NCBI GenBank assembly: GCA_038851325.1
Contig: JAWCKZ010000001.1
Location: 111,410-175,409, forward strand
DNA: 64,000 nt
From: Candidatus Bilamarchaeaceae archaeon
Lineage (GTDB): Archaea; Micrarchaeota; Micrarchaeia; Anstonellales; Bilamarchaeaceae
Reading direction: 5' to 3'
Position numbers and translations under genes: made by a program. The notes under the pieces are model-generated. The model was not told where the DNA came from. It searched no databases and saw only the letters and a program-made list of their open reading frames with translations. Below are positions 1-48,736 of this stretch, one piece after another; within the stretch, counting starts at the first letter, position 1, and each line of letters begins with the position of its first letter.

Positions 1-86
1 AAAGATAATTGGAAAAAGTGCACCTATTTATGTTCGCGGGGCAACAAGTATTTTTTCAAAAGTGCGGATGTTGTGGAGGAGTCTAA

Positions 87-1097
87 ATGGCGGGGGAGTT
101 TGTTGGCGCTGAAATCGCTGCGATTGTTGTACTTGCATCAGTAGTTCTCTCTGGAATTTTTATAGGTGTTGGAAGGGCATTTGGCTACAAACGCGTTGAG
201 AATTTTGGGGTGGAGGAATTTTTTCAATCTATTGTAAATGGTGCTATAATCGGCGCCTTTGCGACAATAGTCGCGCTCATCGACTCCGTATCCGCAGGGA
301 TAGCGCCAGGCGTATGTGGAACGGAAGATAAAGTTATCAGCCAACTTACATGTGTTTTTGAAACAACAAGCACTTCAATGTTTTCTCTTCTTCAAGAGCT
401 GATGCGACTTCTGAATACTATAGGATACTACCAGACACTTACTCTGAATTTTGATGTAATATCAATACAACCATTTGTAAACCTTGCTGCTTTATCTCTT
501 ATCTTTTCGGCTGAAACGCTTATTGTTCAGATAATATTAATCCTCATAAATCTGAATCTTGAAATACTAAATTTTATAGGAGCAAATGCACTTCTATTCA
601 TACTACCAATAGGTCTCGTGTTTAGAACCTTTTTCGCTACAAGACGTGTTGGTGCATTTCTCATCGGACTCGCAATCGGTATGTATCTACTCTATCCCGC
701 GTTTGTTATGATGTTTCCGTCGCCCCAAACTGACATAGAAAATGCAACTGCTAACATAACGGCAATAAATAATAAGGTCTATTACTCTGCGGTTCCGATC
801 GTGGACCTTAATGATAACTACGCGCTTGCCGCAAAACTAGACGTTATGAGTGGCCGTTGTTTTGACAGCAGCTCTGAAAACTGCCAGAATGCAACCCACG
901 GACTTCGAAGGGAGGACGTTGACTTCGTAGGCGACATGACGATTGCCAGTCAACTCTCGGCCATAGCCATAGGAAAAGCACTTATGTACCTTGTTGTAGC
1001 CCCTCTCCTTTCACTCTTGATAACCGTGATATTTGTTAAGGAAATAACAAAAATACTCGGAAGTGAAATAGGTTTAGATTTTGTGAGAGTAGTATAG
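87..1097 (+). CDS. polytopic membrane protein, hypothetical (about 6-7 predicted TM helices with Cys-containing extracytoplasmic loops)
   Basis: ORF of 336 aa. Several long hydrophobic stretches (IAAIVVLASVVLSGIFIGV, LIVQIILILINLNLEIL, VGAFLIGLAIGMYLLYPAFVMMF, MYLVVAPLLSLLITVIFV). No recognisable catalytic motif. Could be a VirB6/CedA-like channel component, but that is inference only. Confidence 0.4.
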   Translation: MAGEFVGAEIAAIVVLASVVLSGIFIGVGRAFGYKRVENFGVEEFFQSIVNGAIIGAFATIVALIDSVSAGIAPGVCGTEDKVISQLTCVFETTSTSMFSLLQELMRLLNTIGYYQTLTLNFDVISIQPFVNLAALSLIFSAETLIVQIILILINLNLEILNFIGANALLFILPIGLVFRTFFATRRVGAFLIGLAIGMYLLYPAFVMMFPSPQTDIENATANITAINNKVYYSAVPIVDLNDNYALAAKLDVMSGRCFDSSSENCQNATHGLRREDVDFVGDMTIASQLSAIAIGKALMYLVVAPLLSLLITVIFVKEITKILGSEIGLDFVRVV

Positions 1098-2966: not shown

Positions 2967-3019
2967 AAAAGTATTTATAAATATATAAACACAAGAGTAA
3001 ATGTTGAGGAGGTGCGCTC

Positions 3020-3802
3020 GTGTACACAAATAGGGCAATCACAATAGCTGCTCTTTTAGGCGGATTTATTGCACTGGTGCTCTCGCTGGTATTCGGCAAT
3101 CCGATTCTGGCGGTCATCTCTGCAATTTTCTTTTCAGCCAGTATCGCATTATGGAAGTATGGTTATCTTATCGTTCCCCTTTTCACACAAGCAACAAACA
3201 TCGTGGAAGTCAGGGATGAATTCGAGATACCACCGTCGCGAGATTACATAATAAAGAAAACACCTGATGGATACTACGCAACCAAATTTCTTGAGGTGCG
3301 TTTCTATGAAAGTTCCATGGACAAAATGGAAAGTGAAAAGAGACTTCTCTTTGAGTCCTTTGAAAAGGCGATAAGCTCTCTAAAATATGTGGTCAAGATA
3401 TCGACCCTTATATCCGCAATAGACCTCTCGAAGCACATAGATGAGATAAAAACAAGAAGAAGTGCAGTTGAGACAAAAAGAGCTGCTGAGGAGCGTCTCA
3501 ACCCAGCAGAGGTAATGAGATACGACCGCGAAATAGCGATGCTCACGCGCCTGCTTGATCGTTTTGGCAAAGGTGAACGACCTATAGAGGTTATTGCATT
3601 TGCTTCCACAACTGCTTTTGGACTTACGAGGGATGAAGCGGTGAGCAAGGCAAATAGGCAAGGAAAGGAATTAAAGACAATCCTATCGAGCTCCCTTGGG
3701 TGCGATGTCAGAGAGCTGAAGGACCTTGAGATGTTAAAATGCTTCGAATGGGAACTCTTCTATCCTCCAGACGAGGAATCGCTAAGGGATGAGGTGTTCT
3801 GA
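3020..3802 (+). CDS. membrane-anchored N-terminal module (2 TM helices plus a soluble domain) preceding a VirB4/HerA-family ATPase. Same reading frame as the ATPase ORF, separated only by a TGA.
   Basis: GTG start with a GGAGGTG RBS. Two N-terminal hydrophobic helices (ITIAALLGGFIALVLSLVF, ILAVISAIFFSASIALW) followed by about 200 aa of charged soluble sequence. The stop TGA at 3800-3802 is immediately followed in frame by the TTG start of the ATPase. Confidence 0.55.
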   Translation: MYTNRAITIAALLGGFIALVLSLVFGNPILAVISAIFFSASIALWKYGYLIVPLFTQATNIVEVRDEFEIPPSRDYIIKKTPDGYYATKFLEVRFYESSMDKMESEKRLLFESFEKAISSLKYVVKISTLISAIDLSKHIDEIKTRRSAVETKRAAEERLNPAEVMRYDREIAMLTRLLDRFGKGERPIEVIAFASTTAFGLTRDEAVSKANRQGKELKTILSSSLGCDVRELKDLEMLKCFEWELFYPPDEESLRDEVF

Positions 3803-5236
3803 TTGAAGCTTACTTATACCTTATCAAAAGAACTTGCGAGGCGTCTGCCGTTAACACATCCCCCAGAACCAAGAAAGACTCTTCTACTCTCAAAGCCGTT
3901 CGATGGCGTCTATATAGGGAAAACGCGATTTCTTCACGTCCCGGTTTTTTGGAACCCAGATAAGCTCATAAACCCACACATAGGAGTAATAGGGATAACG
4001 GGTTCCGGAAAGAGTTATACTGTTAAAACATTTCTGACCCGCGCTTCTCTTATTTGGAATACAAACGCGCTAATACTAGACTGGGTCGGCGAATATGATA
4101 AATGGGTTAGACAAGCAGGGGGGCGCGTGATAAATCTTGCAGCGGAAAAGCTAAACATTCTTGATCTTGTAGGTCTTCCAAAGCACAGCCGGATAAAGCA
4201 AATAATGTCGGCATTTGACATCCTTGCTGATTTGAAGAGCTTCCCAAATGAACGGGATGAGATTGAGGATGCGCTGGAGCATGTTTACGAATCCGTCAAC
4301 AAACCGGTTCTCCTCGATGTCATAAAATACCTTGAAAAAAAGGAAAAGTATAAGGCAGCGAGGTTGCTTAAACGATTCGCTGCTGAAGGAAGCGATTTCT
4401 TCGCTGGTAAAACAACCCTTGATATTAAATCGCTTACATCATCGGGACTTGTCTGTATAGATCTACATGAACTTCCAACCGAAGAGATAAGAAGTCTTGC
4501 TGGGCTCACAATTCTTCAGTATGTAAAGGAACTCATGCGCGCTGAAGGCATGAAAATAGATAAAAAGGTGCGACTTTTTGTTGTTCTCGATGAAGCTTGG
4601 AAGATAGCGCAGGATGAACGAAGCGATGTGATAGCCATTGTCCGCGAAGGCCGAAAATATAATTTTTCATTGATAATAGCCACACAGAATCCAACGGATA
4701 TGCATAAGACGATATTTAGCAATATGGGAAGCATGTTTATTTTAAGGCTCATACTCAAAGAGTATCGCGATTTCGTGCGTGAGTCAGTAGGATATCCATC
4801 CTTTATAGATCATGAGATATCCAGATTCGGCGTTGGGGATGCTGCGGTTAACATGATATTTGCTGAGAGACAGGAGCGGGCTATGACCTTTCTTCTGGAA
4901 AAGATAGACGGCGAGGATCCGCTTTTTATTTATAAGATTAGGGGTGGAAAGATGGAAATCGAAATTGAGAGAGAGCAATTCGTTAAAATGCTTTATGAAT
5001 TGGGATTAACAGAAGGTCAGTTGGAACTCATAAAAAAAGAATTCGAAAAAAGAGATGGATTAATGGAAGGAGAACATCTTGTTGAAATGCTGGAACGATT
5101 TGGGTATTCGAAATCTTCCATAATCGCATTCCTTCGCCAGCTTGGCTTTGAAGAGAAAAACCTGGTAAGAATATTTTCATTGGTAAAAATGCGAAAGGCT
5201 GCAAAAGGCGTTGTAAATGTTGTATTAGAAGAATGA
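3803..5236 (+). CDS. FtsK/HerA/VirB4-superfamily P-loop ATPase (VirB4/CedB-like or DUF87-like)
   Basis: Walker A GITGSGKSYT. Walker B LFVVLDEAW (DEAW as in VirB4/TrbE). NFSLIIATQNPTDM (ATQ motif of the HerA/VirB4 clade). TTG start preceded by GGATGAGGTG. Confidence 0.7.
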   Translation: MKLTYTLSKELARRLPLTHPPEPRKTLLLSKPFDGVYIGKTRFLHVPVFWNPDKLINPHIGVIGITGSGKSYTVKTFLTRASLIWNTNALILDWVGEYDKWVRQAGGRVINLAAEKLNILDLVGLPKHSRIKQIMSAFDILADLKSFPNERDEIEDALEHVYESVNKPVLLDVIKYLEKKEKYKAARLLKRFAAEGSDFFAGKTTLDIKSLTSSGLVCIDLHELPTEEIRSLAGLTILQYVKELMRAEGMKIDKKVRLFVVLDEAWKIAQDERSDVIAIVREGRKYNFSLIIATQNPTDMHKTIFSNMGSMFILRLILKEYRDFVRESVGYPSFIDHEISRFGVGDAAVNMIFAERQERAMTFLLEKIDGEDPLFIYKIRGGKMEIEIEREQFVKMLYELGLTEGQLELIKKEFEKRDGLMEGEHLVEMLERFGYSKSSIIAFLRQLGFEEKNLVRIFSLVKMRKAAKGVVNVVLEE

Positions 5237-5239
5237 TGG

Positions 5240-5950
5240 GTGTACGGTATGACAGAAAAGATAGTCATAAAAGCAGTACAGAAAAAGAACATGAGTCCGC
5301 TTGCGACACTTATGGGAAACCTTGGTTTCACAAAGATATCATACTTAAAGGATACGCTCACAATAGAGAGAGTCACAGGATACGACCTCAACAGAAACCC
5401 AGAACTCGATTATCGTATAGTTTTCAGCCCACAGGAGATAGTGCTGGAATACGAGGTACCTAAGAACAAAAACAAAAAGGCAAGACTTCTAAGCGTTCTT
5501 CCGATATTTCTTAATGTTCTGCAACTAGTTGAGGACTACTATGACATAAAGCCATCAGCAATTTACTTTGAGGTTAACACCGCACTCACTGAAGCCTTAA
5601 AACTTGTTGGAAAAGATGTTGTTGACCTTTCAACAGAGCTGAGCGAGCTCCAGGCGAAATACAGGAGCCTGTCAGCAAAGTATAACGACCTTCTCCGCTC
5701 AAGCGAAGAAAACGCAAGGATTCTTCTTGAGTATGAAAGAAAAAAAGATGAATTAAACAGAAAAGTGGAAAGGCTTACGCGCTACAGTGATGACGCTCTC
5801 AAGGAGATGGTATATGAATGGATAAAATTACATGGTGGAAAGATAAATCTTCTTGAGTTTTCAAAGATACATAGGGTTCCGATACCTCGCCTCGAGGAGA
5901 TATTGAATATGCTCGTTACAGAGGGGTATATAAAAAGGAGGTTTGAATGA
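5240..5950 (+). CDS. coiled-coil protein with a C-terminal winged-helix-like domain, hypothetical partner of the ATPase
   Basis: Overlaps the ATPase stop. Central heptad-like segment (LSTELSELQAKYRSLSAKYNDLLRSSEENARILLEYERKKDELNRKVERL). C-terminal LEFSKIHRVPIPRLEEILNMLVTEGYIKRR resembles a wHTH. Confidence 0.45.
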   Translation: MYGMTEKIVIKAVQKKNMSPLATLMGNLGFTKISYLKDTLTIERVTGYDLNRNPELDYRIVFSPQEIVLEYEVPKNKNKKARLLSVLPIFLNVLQLVEDYYDIKPSAIYFEVNTALTEALKLVGKDVVDLSTELSELQAKYRSLSAKYNDLLRSSEENARILLEYERKKDELNRKVERLTRYSDDALKEMVYEWIKLHGGKINLLEFSKIHRVPIPRLEEILNMLVTEGYIKRRFE

Positions 5951-6089
5951 CTGCAGAAGAAATGGAATTCTCACTTGTAAAACACTACCCGCTCGAACGA
6001 AGGTATATCACACTTAAGGAGCTGAAGAAACCTTTTCTCCAGGCTCTGGCAGACCTTATTTTTAAAAGACGCAAATAAAAGGTGGATTT

Positions 6090-7382
6090 ATGAAAGTCGT
6101 GCTAGTTGGAAGCGGGGCGAGAGAGCATGCAATAGCAGAGCAACTTTCTAAAAGTGCAGAGCTTTACACAATAATGGAAAAAAAACATCCTGGTATTGCA
6201 AAGCTCTCAACAAAATTCCTTATAGCCAATCCGACTGATAGAAAGAGAATAGTTGAATGGTGCAAAGCCGAAGGAATAGAACTTGGCTTTGTGAGTCCAG
6301 ATGGTCTCCTTGCGGCTGGTGTCAGTGATATTCTGGAGAGTGCTGGAGTGGCGATTGCTTCTCCGACAAAAGCAGCTGCACGAATAGAGTGGGATAAAGG
6401 ATACGCCCGTAATCTAATGAGAGAAAACTCGATTCCAGGAGTACCAGAATTCACGATTGCAACATCAGATGCAGAGGTTCTCTCTTTCATTAAGGATATG
6501 GGAGAGATTGTGGTGAAACCAATCGGGCTTACAGGAGGAAAGGGTGTTCGGATAATGGGGGAGCACTTTAAGAGCGCGAATGAAGCCCTGAACTACGCGA
6601 GCTCTCTTATTAAAAAAGATGGCTCTGTTCTCCTCGAGGAAAAACTCGATGGCGAAGAGATAACGATACAGGCATTCTGCGATGGTGCGAAAATTGCGCT
6701 TATGCCTCCTGTCCAAGACCATAAACGCGCGTTTGTTGGAGACAAAGGGCCCAACACCGGCGGAATGGGCTCTTATTCCACAGGAGCGCTTCTCCCGTTC
6801 ATGCAGCAAAAAGATCTCGCAGAAGCAGACCTTATTCTTAAAAAGACAGTGGAGGCGATGGCAAAAGAGGGAAACAAATTCAAGGGCGTACTCTACGGGC
6901 AGTTCATGATAACTAAAAAAGGGCTTAAACTCATAGAATTTAACTCACGTTTTGGCGACCCAGAAGCTATAAATGTGCTAATGCTTCTGCGTACTCAATT
7001 GGCCGATATCCTTCTTTCCGTAGCAAACGGAAATCTTATAGTGCCGATGTTCAGCACTGATTGCACAGTTGTCAAGTATCTCGTTCCAGAAGGATACCCA
7101 GAAAAGGGTAAGGCAGATGAAAAAATAGAAGTAAATGAAAAGGAAATTTGGAACTGCGGTGCAAAATTCTACTTCGGTTCTGTGTACGAGAAAGAGGATA
7201 AGATCTACACAACCACCTCACGTGCCATTGCAATCGCAGCGCATGGACGTGCTTTAAAGGATGCTGAAGAACGGGTTGAATGTGGCATCCGCTGGGTTTC
7301 TGGACCGCTGTGGCACCGTTCTGACATCGGAACCGAAGAGCTTATAAGCAAAAGAGTAGAGCACATGAAGAGACTGAGATAG
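6090..7382 (+). CDS. purD: phosphoribosylamine--glycine ligase
   Basis: ATP-grasp fold with conserved PurD N-terminal MKVLVVGSGAREHA-like start (here MKVVLVGSGAREHAIA) and a C-terminal PurD domain. Confidence 0.9.
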   Translation: MKVVLVGSGAREHAIAEQLSKSAELYTIMEKKHPGIAKLSTKFLIANPTDRKRIVEWCKAEGIELGFVSPDGLLAAGVSDILESAGVAIASPTKAAARIEWDKGYARNLMRENSIPGVPEFTIATSDAEVLSFIKDMGEIVVKPIGLTGGKGVRIMGEHFKSANEALNYASSLIKKDGSVLLEEKLDGEEITIQAFCDGAKIALMPPVQDHKRAFVGDKGPNTGGMGSYSTGALLPFMQQKDLAEADLILKKTVEAMAKEGNKFKGVLYGQFMITKKGLKLIEFNSRFGDPEAINVLMLLRTQLADILLSVANGNLIVPMFSTDCTVVKYLVPEGYPEKGKADEKIEVNEKEIWNCGAKFYFGSVYEKEDKIYTTTSRAIAIAAHGRALKDAEERVECGIRWVSGPLWHRSDIGTEELISKRVEHMKRLR

Positions 7383-7399
7383 TACCGAAAGGGATTAGT

Positions 7400-8593
7400 G
7401 TGAAAAGGAACATAGTTATCGAAAGGTCCTCTTACCTACCAGCATACAAGCGCAGGGTTGAACTTGCAGAGCGGAAGGGAGTGGGACACCCGGATACCTT
7501 AATAGACGGTATTATGGAAGAGATAAGCAAAGAGCTCAGTAAAGAATACCTTAATGAATTTGGGGGAATACTTCATCATAACGTAGATAAGGGACAGATA
7601 TGTGGCGGAGCAACAGAGGTAAATTTTGGCGGCGGTGTTTTTACAAAACCTATCTACATTCTTCTTGGCGGTCGTGCAACGGGCGAGGTCGGTGGAAAAA
7701 AGATACCTGTCCAGCATATTGCAGTTGAAACAGCGAAAAGATATCTAAAAAATACTATTAGGCATCTTGACGTAGAGTGTGATGTGGAATTGGAATCAAG
7801 AATCTCGTCTGGCTCTGCTGAACTCATCGATCTATTGATGAGAAAAAGCAGGACCCCACTTGCGAACGACACAAGCTTCGGAATGGGGTTCGCGCCTTTA
7901 GACGAACTGGAGAAGGTTGTACTGAACACTGAAAGGTATCTCAATTCAATTGAATACAAAAAGATTAGGCCATTTGCTGGCGAGGATATAAAGGTAATGG
8001 GTCTAAGACAAGGAAATAAGATAAAACTCACGGTTGCAATCGCCTTTGTCTCGAAATACATATTGGACATAGAAGAGTACTTAGACTGTAAGAGAAAGGT
8101 TCTTGAAGACTTAAGAAGGTTCGTGAAAAAAATAACAAAAATGGATGTTGATATTTACATAAATACGGCAGATGATATAAAGAGAAAATCGATATATATG
8201 ACACTTACTGGAACGAGCGCTGAAATGGGTGACGATGGAAGTGTTGGAAGAGGAAACCGCGCCAATGGCCTCATAACACCATTCAGGGGGATGTCAATCG
8301 AAGCAGCTGCCGGAAAGAATCCGGTAAACCATGTCGGAAAGGTTTACTCTGTGCTTGCTACTAAGATGGCACGTGAGATAGCTGAGGAGTATAAAAGCAT
8401 AGAGGATATAACAGTAGGATTGCTCTCTCAAATAGGGAAGCCCATAGATCAACCGAAGGTTGCAAGTGTTACCTTTGTTTCAAAGGACTTCGAGAAAATA
8501 AAGAGCAAGGTACGATATTTGATCGATAAAGGTCTTGAGGAAGTAACAGAGATTACACCCCTAATAATTTCTGGTAAAATCTCGGTCTTTTAA
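7400..8593 (+). CDS. mat: archaeal-type S-adenosylmethionine synthetase (methionine adenosyltransferase)
   Basis: About 400 aa. N-terminal RNIVIE...ERKGVGHPDTLIDGIMEE matches archaeal MAT (MJ1208 family), not bacterial MetK. Confidence 0.85.
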   Translation: MKRNIVIERSSYLPAYKRRVELAERKGVGHPDTLIDGIMEEISKELSKEYLNEFGGILHHNVDKGQICGGATEVNFGGGVFTKPIYILLGGRATGEVGGKKIPVQHIAVETAKRYLKNTIRHLDVECDVELESRISSGSAELIDLLMRKSRTPLANDTSFGMGFAPLDELEKVVLNTERYLNSIEYKKIRPFAGEDIKVMGLRQGNKIKLTVAIAFVSKYILDIEEYLDCKRKVLEDLRRFVKKITKMDVDIYINTADDIKRKSIYMTLTGTSAEMGDDGSVGRGNRANGLITPFRGMSIEAAAGKNPVNHVGKVYSVLATKMAREIAEEYKSIEDITVGLLSQIGKPIDQPKVASVTFVSKDFEKIKSKVRYLIDKGLEEVTEITPLIISGKISVF

Positions 8594-8689
8594 ACGATTA
8601 AAAACCTTCTTTCTTATATGTTTATCTCGCAGATGTATGGATTTTTAGTTGGAGTGAACGACGATTCGTTCACTGCCTTAACTCCGTTC

Positions 8690-9071
8690 GGGCCTGTAGT
8701 CGAATGCTGGAAGGCCGGCATTGGTTAAGACGTTACCCTGACAAGGCTTTTTGTCTTCGGTGTTTCTGAGGGCAAAAACCCTGGAAAAAGCCCTGAGGTT
8801 TCTCCTCTGGGTGTGTTGGGCTTTTTGTCTTCGGTGTTTCTGAGGGCAAAAACCCTGGAAAAAGCCCTGAGGTTTCTCCTCTGGGTGTGTTGGGCTTTTT
8901 GTCTTCGGTGTTTCTGAGGGCAAAAACCCTGGAAACGGCATTTGGCTCCTAAGCAGGTGCTTATGACCTGAGGATTGTCTCAGGAGCTAAATACCGTTTG
9001 GAAAAAGACTTGAGGAAAACTCCTGTCTTCTGTAACGGTAAAGATTCCCGGTTCGATCCCGGGCGGGCCCA
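8690..9071 (+). tRNA. tRNA-Val (anticodon GAC) with two introns. A roughly 17-nt insertion in the D-loop, and an about 292-nt intron at the anticodon loop that contains a 74-bp tandem repeat.
   Basis: Hand-folded. Acceptor GGGCCUG(8690-8696)/CGGGCCC(9064-9070) with discriminator A. D-stem GUCG, D-loop AA[ugcuggaaggccggcau]UGGUUA. Anticodon stem UUACC(8733-8737)/GGUAA(9037-9041), loop CUGACAA. Perfect T-arm CCCGG-UUCGAUC-CCGGG (9047-9063). No encoded CCA. Confidence 0.6.
8745..8937. repeat. 74-bp tandem repeat, about 2.6 copies, beginning exactly at the predicted start of the tRNA-Val anticodon intron
   Basis: Unit GGCTTTTTGTCTTCGGTGTTTCTGAGGGCAAAAACCCTGGAAAAAGCCCTGAGGTTTCTCCTCTGGGTGTGTTG repeated identically at 8745-8818 and 8819-8892. 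Third copy truncated near 8937. Confidence 0.85.
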
Positions 9072-9159
9072 ATCCTTCATTTGTTTGCAGGAGTGGCGGT
9101 TGGTTTGACATGCGCTTGCTGTCAAAGCCCGCCACTGTCGTAATGTATTTTGCTGCAAC

Positions 9160-9278
9160 AATTGTTTTCGCAGGAGTGGCGGAGTGGTCAAACGCGGCAG
9201 ACTCAAGATCTGAATGTTCCTTTCACGATTGTGTGGTGGGAAATCTGTTGGCCAAGCGCCTACACAGGTTCGAATCCT
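9160..9278 (+). tRNA. tRNA-Leu (anticodon CAA) with an intron of about 35 nt at the canonical anticodon-loop position
   Basis: Acceptor GCAGGAG/CUCCUGC with discriminator A. D-arm GCGG-AGUGGUCAAAC-GCGG. Anticodon loop CUCAAGA. Long variable arm UGGCCAAGCGCCU. T-arm ACAGG-UUCGAAU-CCUGU. AUCUG duplicated (9198-9202 and 9234-9238), consistent with an intron between them. Confidence 0.65.
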
Positions 9279-9319
9279 GTCTCCTGCATCTTTTTATTTT
9301 TATTCCTAGATAAGGAGAC

Positions 9320-46761: not shown

Positions 46762-47139
46762 TTACGAAAAACTACACGGATCACTAATAGATGGCGGGGT
46801 CTTGCCCATCAATAATGCGATAACATAGGGCGCAATAAGATATATAACAATACCTATGACTGCCCCCGTGAGCATTGATGTCGCCCAGACTGCTGCCCTT
46901 GCTCTTGTTTCCGCACCCATCATTTGCCCAATTGCATAAGTTACACCAGCAAGAACAACAAGCAACACTGCTGCTATCCCAAGGAATGATTGTACAAGTC
47001 TGCATAGACCTTGCATCGCGGAAATTATCGCTCCGCCAGCATCAGCATTGACAACTCCAATTAGATTAATTAACAATACAGCTATAATAAGGTATCTCCC
47101 AAACTTATTTATCGAATTCATTATTTCAACTGCGCTCAT
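46762..47139 (-). CDS. small secreted helical-hairpin membrane protein, candidate VirB2/TrbC/CedA1-like pilin
   Basis: 125 aa. Long signal peptide (MSAVEIMNSINKFGRYLIIAVLLINLIGVVNA|DAGG) then two hydrophobic helices separated by the short polar loop GQMMGAETRARAA, the architecture of conjugative pilins. Confidence 0.4.
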   Translation of the reverse strand: MSAVEIMNSINKFGRYLIIAVLLINLIGVVNADAGGAIISAMQGLCRLVQSFLGIAAVLLVVLAGVTYAIGQMMGAETRARAAVWATSMLTGAVIGIVIYLIAPYVIALLMGKTPPSISDPCSFS

Positions 47140-47299
47140 TTTGTCACCTTTCTCAAAAGTGAGCAGTGAACGAGGTTGAGGACGAAGTTCTCAACTGTCC
47201 AGAAACTCCGTTTCTGTACAAGTTCACTCAATCACTTTTTGTTGTTGGTATCTATGTGTTTGTTAATATTTATAAAGTTTAGCCAACGTCTCATCCTCC

Positions 47300-48736
47300 A
47301 TGAAAAAGGCTCATCTCATCCTTATTTTGCTGATTTTATACCTCTTGCCACGGCTATTTTTGGCAACAGAAATACCAATCAGAAAGGATGAAGGAGTCTA
47401 TGCAATAATGATTGAAGAGCAGATCGAACACCTTACACTGGTACCAACCTTTTTTGGTTATGAAGTAGGGTGGAAGCCGCCGCTTTATTTTTGGCTTTCG
47501 ATACCATTCGTGATTCTGACAAAGATGATTCCTTTTTTGCCCTTGGAGCTGGTATACCGCTCTTCAAGTCTATTTTTTGGCTTAGCTGCGATGGTTCCTC
47601 TCTATTACATATTCAGGAAATTTGAGGATGAGGAATTCGCGCTTCTAGCAGTCGGCCTCTACGCTCTGCTGCCCATTTCTGCATATCCAGAATCCCTGGT
47701 TTTACTGGATGCAACATGCCTCCTATTTGTTCTTTTAGCTATCTGGGCATATCTCGAATATAAAAAAGGAAATGAATATTTCTTGTTGGCTGGCATCTTT
47801 GTTTTTATGGCTTTTTTTACCAAACTGGTCTTGGCATTTGTGCCGCCCATTGTATTCTTTGCATATTTGTGGCAAAACGACAGGAAAACGCTGCTAAACA
47901 AATGGTTCCTCCTCTCTCTTTTGGCTCCATTAACGGCATTTATTTTAAACCACTTAACTTATTCTAATGAAGGCCAAGCAGAAGCATTATATCTTGATTT
48001 GGTCTCGGGGAAACTGTTGGGTGGGCTGGATTATGGTTTGTTTCTTTCGACGTTGCTTCCACTCTTCTTTCTTACTGGCCCCTTTCTTATATTAGCATGC
48101 CAAGGGCTCTTAAAGCATTTAAAGGGAAATCTATTTTTCACAATTTGGTTTGCCCTCGTGATATTCCCGCTTCTTGGCGGCAGATGGATGCCATGGTATT
48201 TCCTTCCCATCACTCCACCAATAATATATTTTTCACTTTTGGTTGTTTTGGAAGACAGAAAAAAAGTGTTTGCAGACAGATTTGCTATCACCATGTTAAC
48301 ATTATTTGTTATTGCGTCGTGGTTGTTCTTTGTCCCTATTTTCCTTTCAGACATGTATTATCTGCCAGCAAAGCATGCAGGCAAATTTCTTGCAGGTAAA
48401 GAGAATGTCCTGATAATTGGCAACTATTCGTCTGGTGTTTTTGCATACAAAATGCTTGAGGAAAAACGCCAACTTGGCTATTCGCTAGATTATGGGCTAG
48501 TTGTTTTCTATCCAGAACACTTTGATCTGCTACCAGATTTAATTGAGAATTATAATTACCACGACCCGAGAATAATCGATGGAAATTTTGAAAAAATGTT
48601 TTTCGATGTTATGGTATATAGAAAAAATACAAATATAAGCAAATTTGATTATATAGCAATTATAGGGGAAAGCACTTGTATGCCCGGCGGACGCACGTTC
48701 AATGATTCTTATATTAACATCTACAGGAAGAATTGA
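47300..48736 (+). CDS. GT-C fold glycosyltransferase (ArnT/PMT-like, GT39/GT83-like)
   Basis: About 11 TM. First extracytoplasmic loop carries RKDEGVY (DE motif of PMT/ArnT family). C-terminal soluble domain. Confidence 0.55.
   Translation: MKKAHLILILLILYLLPRLFLATEIPIRKDEGVYAIMIEEQIEHLTLVPTFFGYEVGWKPPLYFWLSIPFVILTKMIPFLPLELVYRSSSLFFGLAAMVPLYYIFRKFEDEEFALLAVGLYALLPISAYPESLVLLDATCLLFVLLAIWAYLEYKKGNEYFLLAGIFVFMAFFTKLVLAFVPPIVFFAYLWQNDRKTLLNKWFLLSLLAPLTAFILNHLTYSNEGQAEALYLDLVSGKLLGGLDYGLFLSTLLPLFFLTGPFLILACQGLLKHLKGNLFFTIWFALVIFPLLGGRWMPWYFLPITPPIIYFSLLVVLEDRKKVFADRFAITMLTLFVIASWLFFVPIFLSDMYYLPAKHAGKFLAGKENVLIIGNYSSGVFAYKMLEEKRQLGYSLDYGLVVFYPEHFDLLPDLIENYNYHDPRIIDGNFEKMFFDVMVYRKNTNISKFDYIAIIGESTCMPGGRTFNDSYINIYRKN

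Follow-up and report, generated by a model that had tools for sequence, protein, structure and literature searches.

A probable Ced/Ted-like translocation module of Micrarchaeota with a VirB4/CedB-type motor encoded by two separate genes

We analysed a stretch of 64,000 nucleotides from the metagenome-assembled genome of a Candidatus Bilamarchaeaceae archaeon (the stretch is referred to as the window) and found a locus that is predicted to encode a VirB4/CedB-type motor in two pieces, a membrane-anchor protein (ORF1) and a separate ATPase. This locus probably forms the core of a minimal translocation machine, chromosomally encoded and type-IV-secretion-like (Ced/Ted-type), whose conservation extends across the DPANN phylum Micrarchaeota (Microcaldota). 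The original prediction, made from the letters of the window, had proposed a Ced/Ted-like module whose VirB4/CedB-type ATPase could be truly split into a gene for the membrane N-terminal domain and a gene for the ATPase, and this core reading is supported by the comparisons described here. In the searchable literature, we found no description of this split-motor system of Micrarchaeota. The components and the signals around them are:

87-1097, forward strand: polytopic membrane protein of 336 aa (mem336)
2974-2989, forward strand: putative TATA-like box TTTATAAATATATAAA
3006-3014, forward strand: putative Shine-Dalgarno sequence GAGGAGGTG ahead of ORF1
3020-3802, forward strand: ORF1, 260 aa, GTG start at 3020, TGA stop at 3800-3802
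3786-3805, forward strand: coupling junction with Shine-Dalgarno-like GGGATGAGGTG at 3786-3796, TGA stop and TTG start
3803-5236, forward strand: ATPase ORF, 477 aa, TTG start at 3803, TGA stop at 5234-5236
5249-5950, forward strand: coiled-coil/winged-helix protein, 233 aa from the ATG at 5249
5947-6078, forward strand: small basic protein of 43 aa
46762-47139, reverse strand: homologue of VirB2/TrbC-type pilins, 125 aa

The coordinates and motifs predicted for ORF1 and the ATPase ORF were rechecked in the sequence and found to be as described. The TATA-like box and the Shine-Dalgarno sequence ahead of ORF1 were read from the sequence and are inferences only; the region 5' of ORF1 in which the box lies is an intergenic region shared with the divergent guaA. 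For the third gene, gene callers and homologues favour the ATG at 5249 over a GTG at 5240, which would give 236 aa, and the 5947-6078 reading frame is annotated as a gene in the NCBI record.

The ATPase ORF contains a VirB4/CedB-type P-loop domain (residues ~20-351) with a Walker A motif (GITGSGKS, nt 3992-4015), a Walker B motif (VVLDEAW, nt 4580-4600) and an ATQNP motif (nt 4679-4693), as well as a conserved C-terminal extension of ~100 residues that is not present in CedB. In Pfam, it matched DUF87 (4.7e-17) and AAA_10 (1.9e-16), and no match to CagE_TrbE_VirB was obtained. Among the NCBIfam models, CedB ranked first with 107 bits, followed by VirB4-like CD1110 (85), CedD (64) and HerA (at most 50), and three divergent orthologues of the ATPase gave the same ranking with CedB scores of 84-104 bits. 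The match to the CedB model, the equivalog NF041017, amounted to 107.4 bits over profile positions 250-537 of 590 and thus remained below the curated cut-off of 700 bits, as did the match to the VirB4 model TIGR00929 with 43.9 bits compared to a cut-off of 643; no component of the module attained the curated cut-off of any family. The solved C-terminal domain of VirB4 (4ag5) aligned to positions 35-303 with an E-value of 9e-13, the similarity of the ATPase core to solved chains was about the same for the HerA type and for VirB4, and the nearest plasmid-borne genes were those of TraC/VirB4. By these matches and its Walker A and B motifs, the protein carries a C-terminal ATPase domain of the VirB4 type.

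The original prediction had named a placement in HerA sensu stricto with NurA nearby as a result that would refute it. This outcome did not occur, since the HerA models gave only 44.5-50.3 bits, far below their cut-offs of 800-970, and no NurA gene is present in the neighbourhood. The top solved relatives of the ATPase by sequence are nevertheless defence HerA proteins, and its core partially matches HerA models of PADLOC with up to 82.6 bits, so that an anti-phage HerA-type defence system has to be weighed. We regard this as highly improbable: no effector partner (Sir2, nuclease or DUF4297) is present, the other five proteins gave no meaningful PADLOC match (the winged-helix protein matched the coiled-coil LmuB marginally, E 0.006), the gene order is fixed throughout the phylum among housekeeping genes, unlike in a defence island, and the membrane anchor, the pilin and the homology to the N-terminal domain of CedB would all be left unexplained.

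This N-terminal homology is found in ORF1, in which a hydrophobic transmembrane hairpin of two helices (residues ~6-48) is followed by a soluble domain. Residues 83-234 aligned by BLASTP to residues 77-226 of P0378/P0397 (E 3e-11), a CedB-like protein of 603 aa that is encoded in a crenarchaeal CedA1-CedA-CedB locus (L085) and matches the NCBIfam model of CedB over its full length, and residues 20-351 of the ATPase aligned to residues 257-583 of the same protein (E 1e-19). When P0378 was compared with all 351 ORFs of the window, it matched only ORF1 and the ATPase, collinearly, and neither a CedD paralogue nor a further ATPase paralogue was detectable in this search. The collinearity points to a naturally split CedB/VirB4-type motor and bears out the domain order of a CedB/TedB-like ATPase that had been predicted for the ~737 residues of both ORFs together. 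Searches with the ORF1 family gave the same relative: its profile recovered P0378 at E 2.5e-5 from 1.84 billion representatives, and a profile of 89 sequences aligned by hhalign to the N-terminal region of P0378 over 193 columns with a probability of 97.1% and an E-value of 7e-11. NCBIfam CedB was matched by 10 of these 89 members and VirB4_plasma, a VirB4 model of mycoplasma ICEs, by 7, with the similarity reaching the N-terminal regions of both models. AF2 gave only a poor model of ORF1 (pLDDT 57), for which Foldseek returned no match. As far as can be judged from sequence comparison alone, the model being too poor for a check of the fold, ORF1 consists of a transmembrane hairpin and a cytoplasmic domain that shares homology with the N-terminal domain of CedB/VirB4.

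ORF1 and the ATPase ORF share a frame and follow each other without a gap across the TGA at 3800-3802, and the fused architecture exists in CedB. Both points would fit a single 737-aa gene that was broken by a sequencing error, by a recent nonsense mutation or by programmed read-through of the TGA. We consider this practically ruled out. Three other assemblies have the same junction GTGTTCTGATTGAAG, letter for letter; since one of them differs at 14 of 3059 positions, it represents a different strain. TGA, TAG and TAA are all ordinary stops within the window. The two genes are separate in all 76 related Micrarchaeota loci, with TGA, TAG and TAA stops all in use and a spacing between -4 and +5102 nt, where the longer gaps hold inserted genes. 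The frame is shared in 26 of the 76 loci (34%), which is the rate expected by chance; of the 24 loci with genes at most 10 nt apart, 8 are in frame and 16 out of frame. The junctions of the relatives consist of TGATG or TAATG overlaps, of immediately adjacent starts, or of a separate TATA-like box 3' of the stop. Furthermore, ORF1 homologues are always standalone proteins of ~260 aa, in hundreds of clusters, the N-terminus of the ATPase aligns with its homologues from residue 1, and a fused form is absent among the 120 best matches of the ATPase and the 120 best matches of ORF1. The TGA is a true stop. The split of the motor is also ancestral, given the lack of fused forms among the best matches, the variable spacing, the use of all three stops, the chance-level frame and the identical junction across assemblies. 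Of the alternatives that had been left side by side, programmed or erroneous read-through is hence rejected by the 76 loci and the other assemblies and the genuine split stands; the translational coupling proposed along with it is inferred. The Shine-Dalgarno-like sequence postulated for the TTG at 3803 could be located inside the end of ORF1, where GGGATGAGGTG sits in the codons for the conserved C-terminal residues D-E-V-F. In annotation, the in-frame TGA should not be 'repaired'.

The motor does not stand alone. In relatives, a homologue of mem336 is encoded directly upstream of the ORF1 homologue, and of 80 species-level loci, 62 have it within the 7-kb flank. The two genes are set apart in this genome by the insertion of AlaX and GuaA. 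The protein has ~6-7 transmembrane helices and outer loops with Cys residues, and its AF2 model is good (pLDDT 82, pTM 0.74). No significant match was found in Pfam, NCBIfam or the PDB, where the R388 chain 8rtd_I reached only E 1.2, nor to CedA, and the N-terminal hairpin weakly resembles the pilin (hhalign E 8.5e-4, probability 24%). By gene position and topology, and with no detected homology to CedA, mem336 occupies the VirB6/CedA (channel) position.

In 16 of the 80 loci and in locus L090, the membrane gene is preceded at a distance of 14-100 nt by a gene for an 81-aa hairpin protein. An HMM built from 15 such module-adjacent proteins of other Micrarchaeota, from which the window sequence was excluded, matched only 46762-47139 among the 351 ORFs of the window (E 1.7e-7). 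Nineteen small proteins were aligned, namely 17 module-linked homologues, the window ORF and one crenarchaeal CedA1; of these, 13 matched T4SS_pilin PF18895 (best 8.5e-6) and 5 matched TrbC/VirB2 PF04956 (best 1e-6), and for the window pilin itself no direct Pfam or PDB match was obtained. Its signal-peptide-like N-terminus ends in VNA/DA and is followed by a two-helix hydrophobic hairpin. The VirB2-like pilin candidate of the original prediction is in this way identified as a homologue of the VirB2/TrbC-type pilins that adjoin the module in other Micrarchaeota, and both additional components suggested at the time, the membrane protein and the pilin, are linked to the module by the synteny of the relatives. 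In this genome the pilin gene is not linked to the other module genes but lies 43 kb away from them, between unrelated neighbours (Lhr helicase, DUF333, PMT_2). A VirB2/TrbC-type pilin belongs to the ancestral module, and its gene has been relocated away from it in this lineage. The order in other Micrarchaeota is pilin, membrane protein, ORF1, ATPase and coiled-coil protein; since the pilin lies directly 5' of the membrane gene, the order of pilin, channel and motor is that of Ced (CedA1-CedA-CedB).

The coiled-coil/winged-helix gene lies immediately 3' of the ATPase gene in every fetched Micrarchaeota locus, and the synteny of membrane N-terminal domain, ATPase and coiled-coil protein that had been put forward as a check is conserved across these loci. 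Residues ~105-185 of the protein gave only coiled-coil noise in Pfam. Its C-terminal 45 residues matched weakly the winged helix of CdvB (2xvc, E 0.044) and, in 10 of 38 members, ESCRT-II EAP30 (best 7e-4). A winged helix of the FtsK-gamma type, as had been suspected, is not supported: these weak matches are the best ones, the domain resides on a protein separate from the ATPase, and it does not match FtsK gamma. The start of the small basic protein overlaps the stop of the coiled-coil gene as ATGA. Directly 3' of the coiled-coil gene, the motif Y.F.FEL..YP..R.[FY].[IV]K.PLK was found in at least 28 of 78 loci, and homologues of the 43-aa protein often have a Lys/Arg-rich N-terminal tail.

Matches were obtained in 280 GTDB species genomes; the best 80 of these carry, almost without exception, the label Micrarchaeota, and the module is apparently kept by the whole phylum. 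The claim that it is chromosomal holds, as no viral contig of IMG/VR matched the module, its neighbours are housekeeping genes (PurD, SAM synthetase, AlaX, GuaA, PHP) and its GC content of 41.9% is close to the 42.9% of the window. Neither a relaxase nor a VirD4 is encoded among the module genes. The ATPase is 57-83% identical across Micrarchaeota, and the median identity to the window protein in the same loci was 70% for the ATPase, 63% for ORF1 and 55% for PurD. An apparently single-copy and universal ATPase of the FtsK-HerA superfamily that is conserved beyond PurD, with inteins in the P-loop of its family as in other core ATPases and a partner whose winged helix is weakly like those of CdvB and ESCRT-II, might also act as a membrane-tethered FtsK/HerA-like DNA pump in chromosome segregation, in clearance of DNA from the division site or in repair, rather than in intercellular transfer. 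We find this improbable, since the ancestral module has a VirB2/TrbC-type pilin, which a segregation pump does not need, FtsK_SpoIIIE (PF01580) matched with 22.6 bits compared to a cut-off of 24 and only in the P-loop (residues 57-79), the HerA scores of 45-50 bits are far from 800-970, and there are no NurA, Mre11 or Rad50 genes near the module.

For the Ced/Ted-type translocation machine, we propose that the polytopic protein would form a channel, to whose cytoplasmic face ORF1 would tether the ATPase ring, and that translational coupling through the Shine-Dalgarno sequence embedded in the last codons of ORF1 would provide matched amounts of both motor halves. The ATPase may extract the pilin from the membrane and thereby build a short structure, pilus or conduit, across the S-layer and, besides or instead of this, it may pull the substrate through; handling of the substrate in the cytoplasm would be the task of the coiled-coil/winged-helix protein and the small basic protein. 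Since the module lacks a relaxase and VirD4 and no curated family is closer to it than CedB, import of DNA from neighbouring cells or from the host is the most likely function, although it has not been shown and we remain undecided about it. A good part of the evidence would also suit the same T4SS-like machine with a cargo other than DNA, acting as an attachment pilus or conduit or as a means by which the Micrarchaeon and its host exchange proteins, lipids or metabolites. Pilus biogenesis, and not only the transfer of substrates, is powered by VirB4 ATPases, and the absence of relaxase and VirD4 from the module speaks for non-DNA cargo, too. So does the phylum-wide, chromosomal and very highly conserved occurrence in a housekeeping context, which resembles the relaxase-less chromosomal T4SS of Patescibacteria (PMC12102498, PMC12857230). 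On the other side, the closest curated family is a DNA importer, and the winged-helix and Lys/Arg-rich partners suggest handling of nucleic acids; neither point is decisive, and we consider a non-DNA cargo rather unlikely without excluding it.

The exchange between DPANN episymbionts and their hosts is an open question, and we know of no dedicated machine that has been assigned to it in Micrarchaeota. The six conserved genes, among which are those of a pilin, of a protein in channel position and of a motor, make a concrete and testable candidate, and their products may be a route for DNA or other large molecules across the membrane of Micrarchaeota. It is conceivable, if doubtful at present, that Micrarchaeota and perhaps other DPANN depend on a T4SS-derived conduit with a two-piece VirB4/CedB motor in order to acquire DNA, nucleotides or other macromolecules from their hosts. 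If true, this conduit would be the archaeal counterpart of the essential T4SS of Patescibacteria, and the motor would be the first natural one of the VirB4 class with membrane/N-terminal and ATPase domains as separate, co-evolving subunits. Such a natural 'domain-split' VirB4 could help to dissect the role of the N-terminal domain. For annotation, the 'hypothetical' proteins of 260, 336, 233 and 43 aa and the 125-aa pilin are to be taken together as members of one system.

Among known systems, Ced of Sulfolobales and related Crenarchaeota (CedA1 pilin, CedA channel, CedB/CedD ATPases) includes the best curated match of the ATPase, CedB, and shares with the module the order of pilin, polytopic membrane protein and motor, the chromosomal location and the lack of relaxase and VirD4. 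CedB is a single chain, whereas the Micrarchaeota motor consists of two polypeptides in 76 of 76 loci and its ATPase carries ~100 additional conserved residues as a C-terminal domain. The pilin resembles TrbC/T4SS_pilin and has no detectable similarity to CedA1, the membrane protein is without detectable similarity to CedA, the coiled-coil/winged-helix and small basic proteins are added partners, and a CedD paralogue is missing from the window. Ced belongs to a UV regulon of Crenarchaeota, the module to a constitutive housekeeping context in DPANN. Ted of Thermoproteales, composed of a VirB2-like pilin (TedC), a VirB6-like membrane protein (TedA) and a VirB4-like ATPase (TedB), is likewise a domesticated chromosomal derivative of a T4SS, a likeness that does not rest on direct sequence comparison. 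TedC has a cleavable signal peptide (PMC9905601), and the window pilin has a cleavable-looking one; unlike the Micrarchaeota motor, TedB is a single-chain VirB4, and the HerA, ParA and Rad50 genes that are common beside Ted loci are absent at this locus.

HerA proteins of DNA repair and anti-phage defence belong to the same ATPase superfamily, and solved HerA-type chains and VirB4 give comparable sequence scores, but a HAS-barrel and a NurA context are lacking here, and HerA systems have neither the membrane-anchored partner nor the pilin. Bacterial VirB3-VirB4, including TraC and TrbE, has the same Walker A/B motifs, AAA_10/DUF87 core and domain order (membrane hairpin, N-terminal domain, ATPase). 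Identity is ~25%, the break in Micrarchaeota lies between the N-terminal and ATPase domains and not between VirB3 and VirB4, and the module, unlike conjugative VirB3-VirB4, is not on a mobile element. Patescibacteria (CPR) have chromosomal, relaxase-less T4SS with VirB2-like pilins that are essential for epibiotic growth (PMC12102498, PMC12857230). They share with the module that it is phylum-wide, chromosomally fixed and relaxase-less, has VirB2-like pilins and occurs in ultrasmall episymbionts with reduced genomes; their T4SS, however, is bacterial, of the MPF-FATA class and with VirB1, B3, B6, B8 and D4-like parts, and essentiality has been shown experimentally for it and not for the Micrarchaeota module. 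With the Micrarchaeota module, its pilin, membrane protein and two-piece motor, the Ced/Ted family of domesticated conjugation machines is no longer confined to Crenarchaeota.

The ORF layout and the motifs predicted earlier at 3020-5950 were confirmed on the sequence. The features of the split motor and of the two genes behind it are:

GTG 3020 to TGA 3800-3802, forward strand: ORF1, the membrane-anchor half of the motor, 260 aa, with a tight hydrophobic N-terminal hairpin (residues ~6-48)
3786-3796, forward strand: Shine-Dalgarno-like GGGATGAGGTG, within the final ORF1 codons
TTG 3803 to 5236, forward strand: ATPase ORF (ORF2), 477 aa, in the frame of ORF1, with Walker A GITGSGKS, Walker B VVLDEAW and ATQNP
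5240 or 5249 to 5950, forward strand: third gene, a protein with a central coiled coil
5947-6078, forward strand: fourth gene, a small protein of 43 aa, the start of which overlaps the preceding stop as ATGA

The original prediction had left two explanations for the TGA between ORF1 and the ATPase ORF, a genuine split or a stop that is read through or erroneous, and the comparison of 76 related loci decided for the former. This genome uses TGA as a normal stop codon, and three further assemblies have the same junction, among them one with 14 differences in 3059 positions, so the junction is not an assembly error. In all 76 loci, ORF1 and the ATPase are separate and the C-terminus of ORF1 is fixed at ...D-E-V-F, with TGA, TAG or TAA as stop. 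The distance from ORF1 to the ATPase start ranges from -4 nt (overlap) to +5102 nt, and in several lineages whole genes intervene, e.g. a hydrolase in Ca. Bilamarchaeum. The frame is shared in 26 of the 76 loci, which equals the chance expectation of one-third; where the gap is at most 10 nt, 8 loci are in frame and 16 out of frame. Stop and start overlap as TGATG or TAATG in many loci, which is typical of translational coupling, and in others a TATA-like box immediately after the ORF1 stop implies an independent promoter for the ATPase. ORF1 homologues are nearly always standalone proteins of exactly 260 aa, and no ORF1-ATPase fusion was found among the 120 best ATPase matches. Since stops and spacing vary and frame agreement stays at chance level, read-through, pseudogenisation and sequencing error were rejected, and a disrupted gene, for which the common frame in the window might speak, is unlikely. 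ORF1 really ends at the TGA, and its separation from the ATPase is ancestral.

In Pfam, the ATPase hits DUF87 and AAA_10, and an identity as FtsK was rejected on the Pfam results. Among NCBIfam models, CedB scored highest (107 bits), followed by VirB4-like CD1110 (85 bits), mycoplasma ICE VirB4 and CedD (64 bits each), TraC (50 bits) and the HerA models (45-50 bits). Every score was far under the curated cut-off, and the ranking was the same in three divergent orthologues. The closest genes in 72,556 plasmids were TraC/VirB4, with ~25% identity. In sequence, the ATPase is roughly as far from solved chains of HerA type as from those of VirB4; a HerA-NurA identity was rejected on the NCBIfam scores and the neighbourhood. 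An anti-phage HerA system is likewise unlikely, and anti-phage defence was rejected after a defence-system search.

The window ORF1 matched no Pfam or NCBIfam model, its profile retrieved only coiled-coil noise from PDB sequences, and its AF2 model was poor (pLDDT 57; 36-sequence alignment), with an uninformative Foldseek search against PDB. In 1.84 billion representative proteins, the ORF1-family profile found 154 clusters, nearly all of standalone proteins of 238-283 aa, and one 603-aa protein, P0378 (E 2.5e-5), which matches the CedB model along its whole length (222 bits, positions 9-587 of 590). P0397, a near-identical member of the P0378 cluster, belongs to a crenarchaeal locus of CedA1 (87 aa), CedA (474 aa) and CedB-like protein (603 aa). 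Residues 83-234 of ORF1 align to 77-226 of P0378 (E 3e-11) and residues 20-351 of the ATPase to 257-583 (E 1e-19), so that both together are collinear with P0378 and the break falls into the inter-domain linker. A diversified 89-sequence ORF1 profile matched the N-terminal region of P0378 with 97.1% probability (E 7e-11, 193 columns), and 10 of the 89 family members match the CedB model and 7 a VirB4 model despite having no ATPase domain. Conversely, P0378 as query found only ORF1 and the ATPase among the 351 six-frame ORFs of the window. These alignments and searches identify ORF1 and the ATPase ORF, at the level of sequence comparison, as a naturally split CedB/VirB4-type motor, as had been proposed.

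The ATPase ends in a highly conserved extension of ~100 aa (residues ~380-477; window 4940-5233) in which helix-turn-like motifs recur, e.g. MLYELGLTEGQLELIKKEF and MLERFGYSKSSIIAFLRQLGF. P0378 has no equivalent of this extension, for which binding of DNA or of a partner protein is a possible role. Some Micrarchaeota ATPase orthologues carry a LAGLIDADG-type intein of ~550 aa exactly within Walker A, at GK^S (GITGSGK / S...VHN / SY...). Besides P0099 and P0100, these are:

L063:4846-7878, intein-bearing ATPase orthologue
L082:5198-8179, intein-bearing ATPase orthologue
L083:5333-8341, intein-bearing ATPase orthologue
L084:2496-5477, intein-bearing ATPase orthologue

The synteny of membrane protein, ORF1, ATPase and coiled-coil protein was found in relatives, where a membrane protein of 336-370 aa is followed by ORF1, the ATPase, a ~235-aa protein, a small protein and usually PurD. 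The 87-1097 product (mem336) is orthologous to this membrane protein, with 46-50% identity, and is separated from ORF1 in this genome by inserted AlaX and GuaA, and the suggestion that it is a further component is thus supported by the gene order in relatives. For both mem336 and ORF1, hypothetical proteins with 100% identity exist in a Candidatus Bilamarchaeaceae MAG (Nanobdellati (DPANN); Microcaldota (Micrarchaeota); Anstonellales). Relatives of the ATPase, 470-540 aa long and with 68-83% identity, number in the hundreds. Counting one genome per GTDB species, relatives occur in 280 genomes; the best 80 of these are nearly all labelled Micrarchaeota, and a few only 'archaeon' or 'Ca. ainarchaeum sp.'. 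No relative was found in IMG/VR viral contigs. Across 49 loci in which all genes are present, identity to the proteins of the window had a median of 70% for the ATPase, 63% for ORF1, 55% for PurD, 49% for the coiled-coil protein and 46% for the membrane protein. The GC of the module equals that of the window; purD starts 11 nt after the module and an archaeal SAM synthetase gene 17 nt after purD (6090-8593). Conservation, GC, these neighbours and the Walker A inteins point to a core cellular function without mobile-element signature.

Of the fetched loci, 70 have purD downstream of the module; for a transfer-type module and a purine-synthesis gene, so stable a linkage is unusual. Three loci titled 'Candidatus ainarchaeum sp.' (L014, L032, L079) encode ATPase orthologues 62-71% identical to that of the window, L014 and L032 in the full Micrarchaeota gene order and L079, a short contig, with ORF1-ATPase-coiled-coil only, which suggests that their taxonomic labels are unreliable. 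A divergent ORF1-like gene of 253 aa (L091:7001-7762; cluster representative P0340, E 8e-9 against the family profile) is surrounded by numerous small ORFs of unknown nature and a PD-(D/E)XK/Cas4-like gene, with no ATPase nearby, and may be on a mobile element. In the window, a tRNA at 9170-9288 (forward strand, 119 nt) was found by Rfam (55 bits) and missed by ARAGORN, presumably owing to an intron in it; the ~575 nt before the tRNA (8594-9169) hold no convincing ORF.

The AF2 model of mem336 is confident (pLDDT 82) and has ~6-7 long helices. Foldseek of this model against PDB gave nothing below E 0.1, nothing significant was found for mem336 in PDB sequence profiles, Pfam or NCBIfam, and in hhalign its profile stayed under 1% probability against CedA and CedA1 (one sequence of each). 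The N-terminal hairpin weakly resembles the pilin family (hhalign E 8.5e-4, probability 24%), and sub-threshold matches between the two recur in the same register. This likeness, not significant here, echoes the relationship reported for Ced between the CedA N-terminus and CedA1 (PMC9905601). A gene for a PHP-domain phosphoesterase of 221 aa, preceded by a 94-aa gene, overlaps the mem336 start by 26 nt:

window 1-112: 3' end of the PHP-domain gene, cut by the window start
L087:1381-2327: PHP-domain gene

It was rejected as a seventh component, since the pair lies beside mem336 in only 15 of 51 loci and is thus lineage-specific.

The VirB2-like pilin candidate at 46762-47139 (reverse strand), far from the motor and among unrelated genes, found support in homologues upstream of the membrane gene elsewhere. 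In L090, a divergent Micrarchaeia locus, a 155-aa protein that weakly matches Pfam T4SS_pilin precedes the membrane protein, an ORF1-like gene, the ATPase and a 246-aa protein, and its sole match among all window ORFs was the candidate. An 81-aa two-helix protein is encoded 14-100 nt upstream of the membrane gene in 16 of 80 species-level loci. We aligned 17 module-linked homologues with the window candidate and one crenarchaeal CedA1; of these 19 small proteins, 13 match PF18895 (T4SS_pilin; best 8.5e-6) and 5 PF04956 (TrbC/VirB2; best 1e-6). An HMM made from this family without the window sequence had the candidate's ORF (46762-47190, reverse strand) as its only window match (E 1.7e-7). The window pilin has a signal-peptide-like N-terminus (...VNA/DA) followed by a hairpin. 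Its profile gave only KdpA noise against PDB sequences, and the pilin profile found nothing in CedA1. The product of 47300-48736 has no exact match on record. With the pilin gene upstream of the membrane gene in relatives, the ancestral module is pilin, membrane protein, motor NTD, motor ATPase, coiled-coil/winged-helix protein and small protein.

The C-terminal domain of the coiled-coil protein (~45 aa; window 5790-5947), predicted to be an FtsK-gamma-like winged helix, instead has its best, weak matches in the winged helix by which CdvB, an archaeal ESCRT-III protein, binds CdvA (2xvc, E 0.044) and in ESCRT-II EAP30 winged helices (10 of 38 members). Typical transcription-factor winged helices were not among the best matches either. 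An FtsK-like segregation pump is unlikely. The 43-aa protein carries a conserved motif and frequently, in relatives, a Lys/Arg-rich N-terminal tail; it has no Pfam or NCBIfam match.

Architecture and homologies were observed; the mechanism rests on inference from what is known of VirB4, Ced and Ted. ORF1 would tether the ATPase ring to the membrane under a channel made by the polytopic protein, the ATPase would power pilin extraction and pilus growth and/or passage of the substrate, and the winged-helix and basic proteins would work at the cytoplasmic side. DNA import is our favoured function, held tentatively and at a little under even chances, because no curated family is closer than CedB, relaxase and VirD4 are missing from the module, and its partners resemble nucleic-acid binders. 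By analogy, the same machine might move another cargo or merely form a host-contact pilus, a role of the kind suggested in Patescibacteria for their essential chromosomal T4SS (PMC12102498, PMC12857230); we give this main rival to DNA import a lower but still appreciable chance.

Full-text literature searches turned up no account linking Micrarchaeota or other DPANN to a Ced or VirB2/VirB4/VirB6-type system. Closest in print is a VirB4/TraG-like domain found in giant surface proteins of nanohaloarchaea (PMC10266531), and the consulted passages of a December 2025 T4SS review give plasmid systems as the only archaeal ones. The orthologue P0075 from Ca. Bilamarchaeum dharawalense bears the automatic label 'DNA import protein CedB'. 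The order of the module matches CedA1-CedA-CedB of Ced, and we rate the module as a Ced/Ted-like domesticated T4SS, fixed in a DPANN phylum, whose two-gene motor and new partners set it apart.
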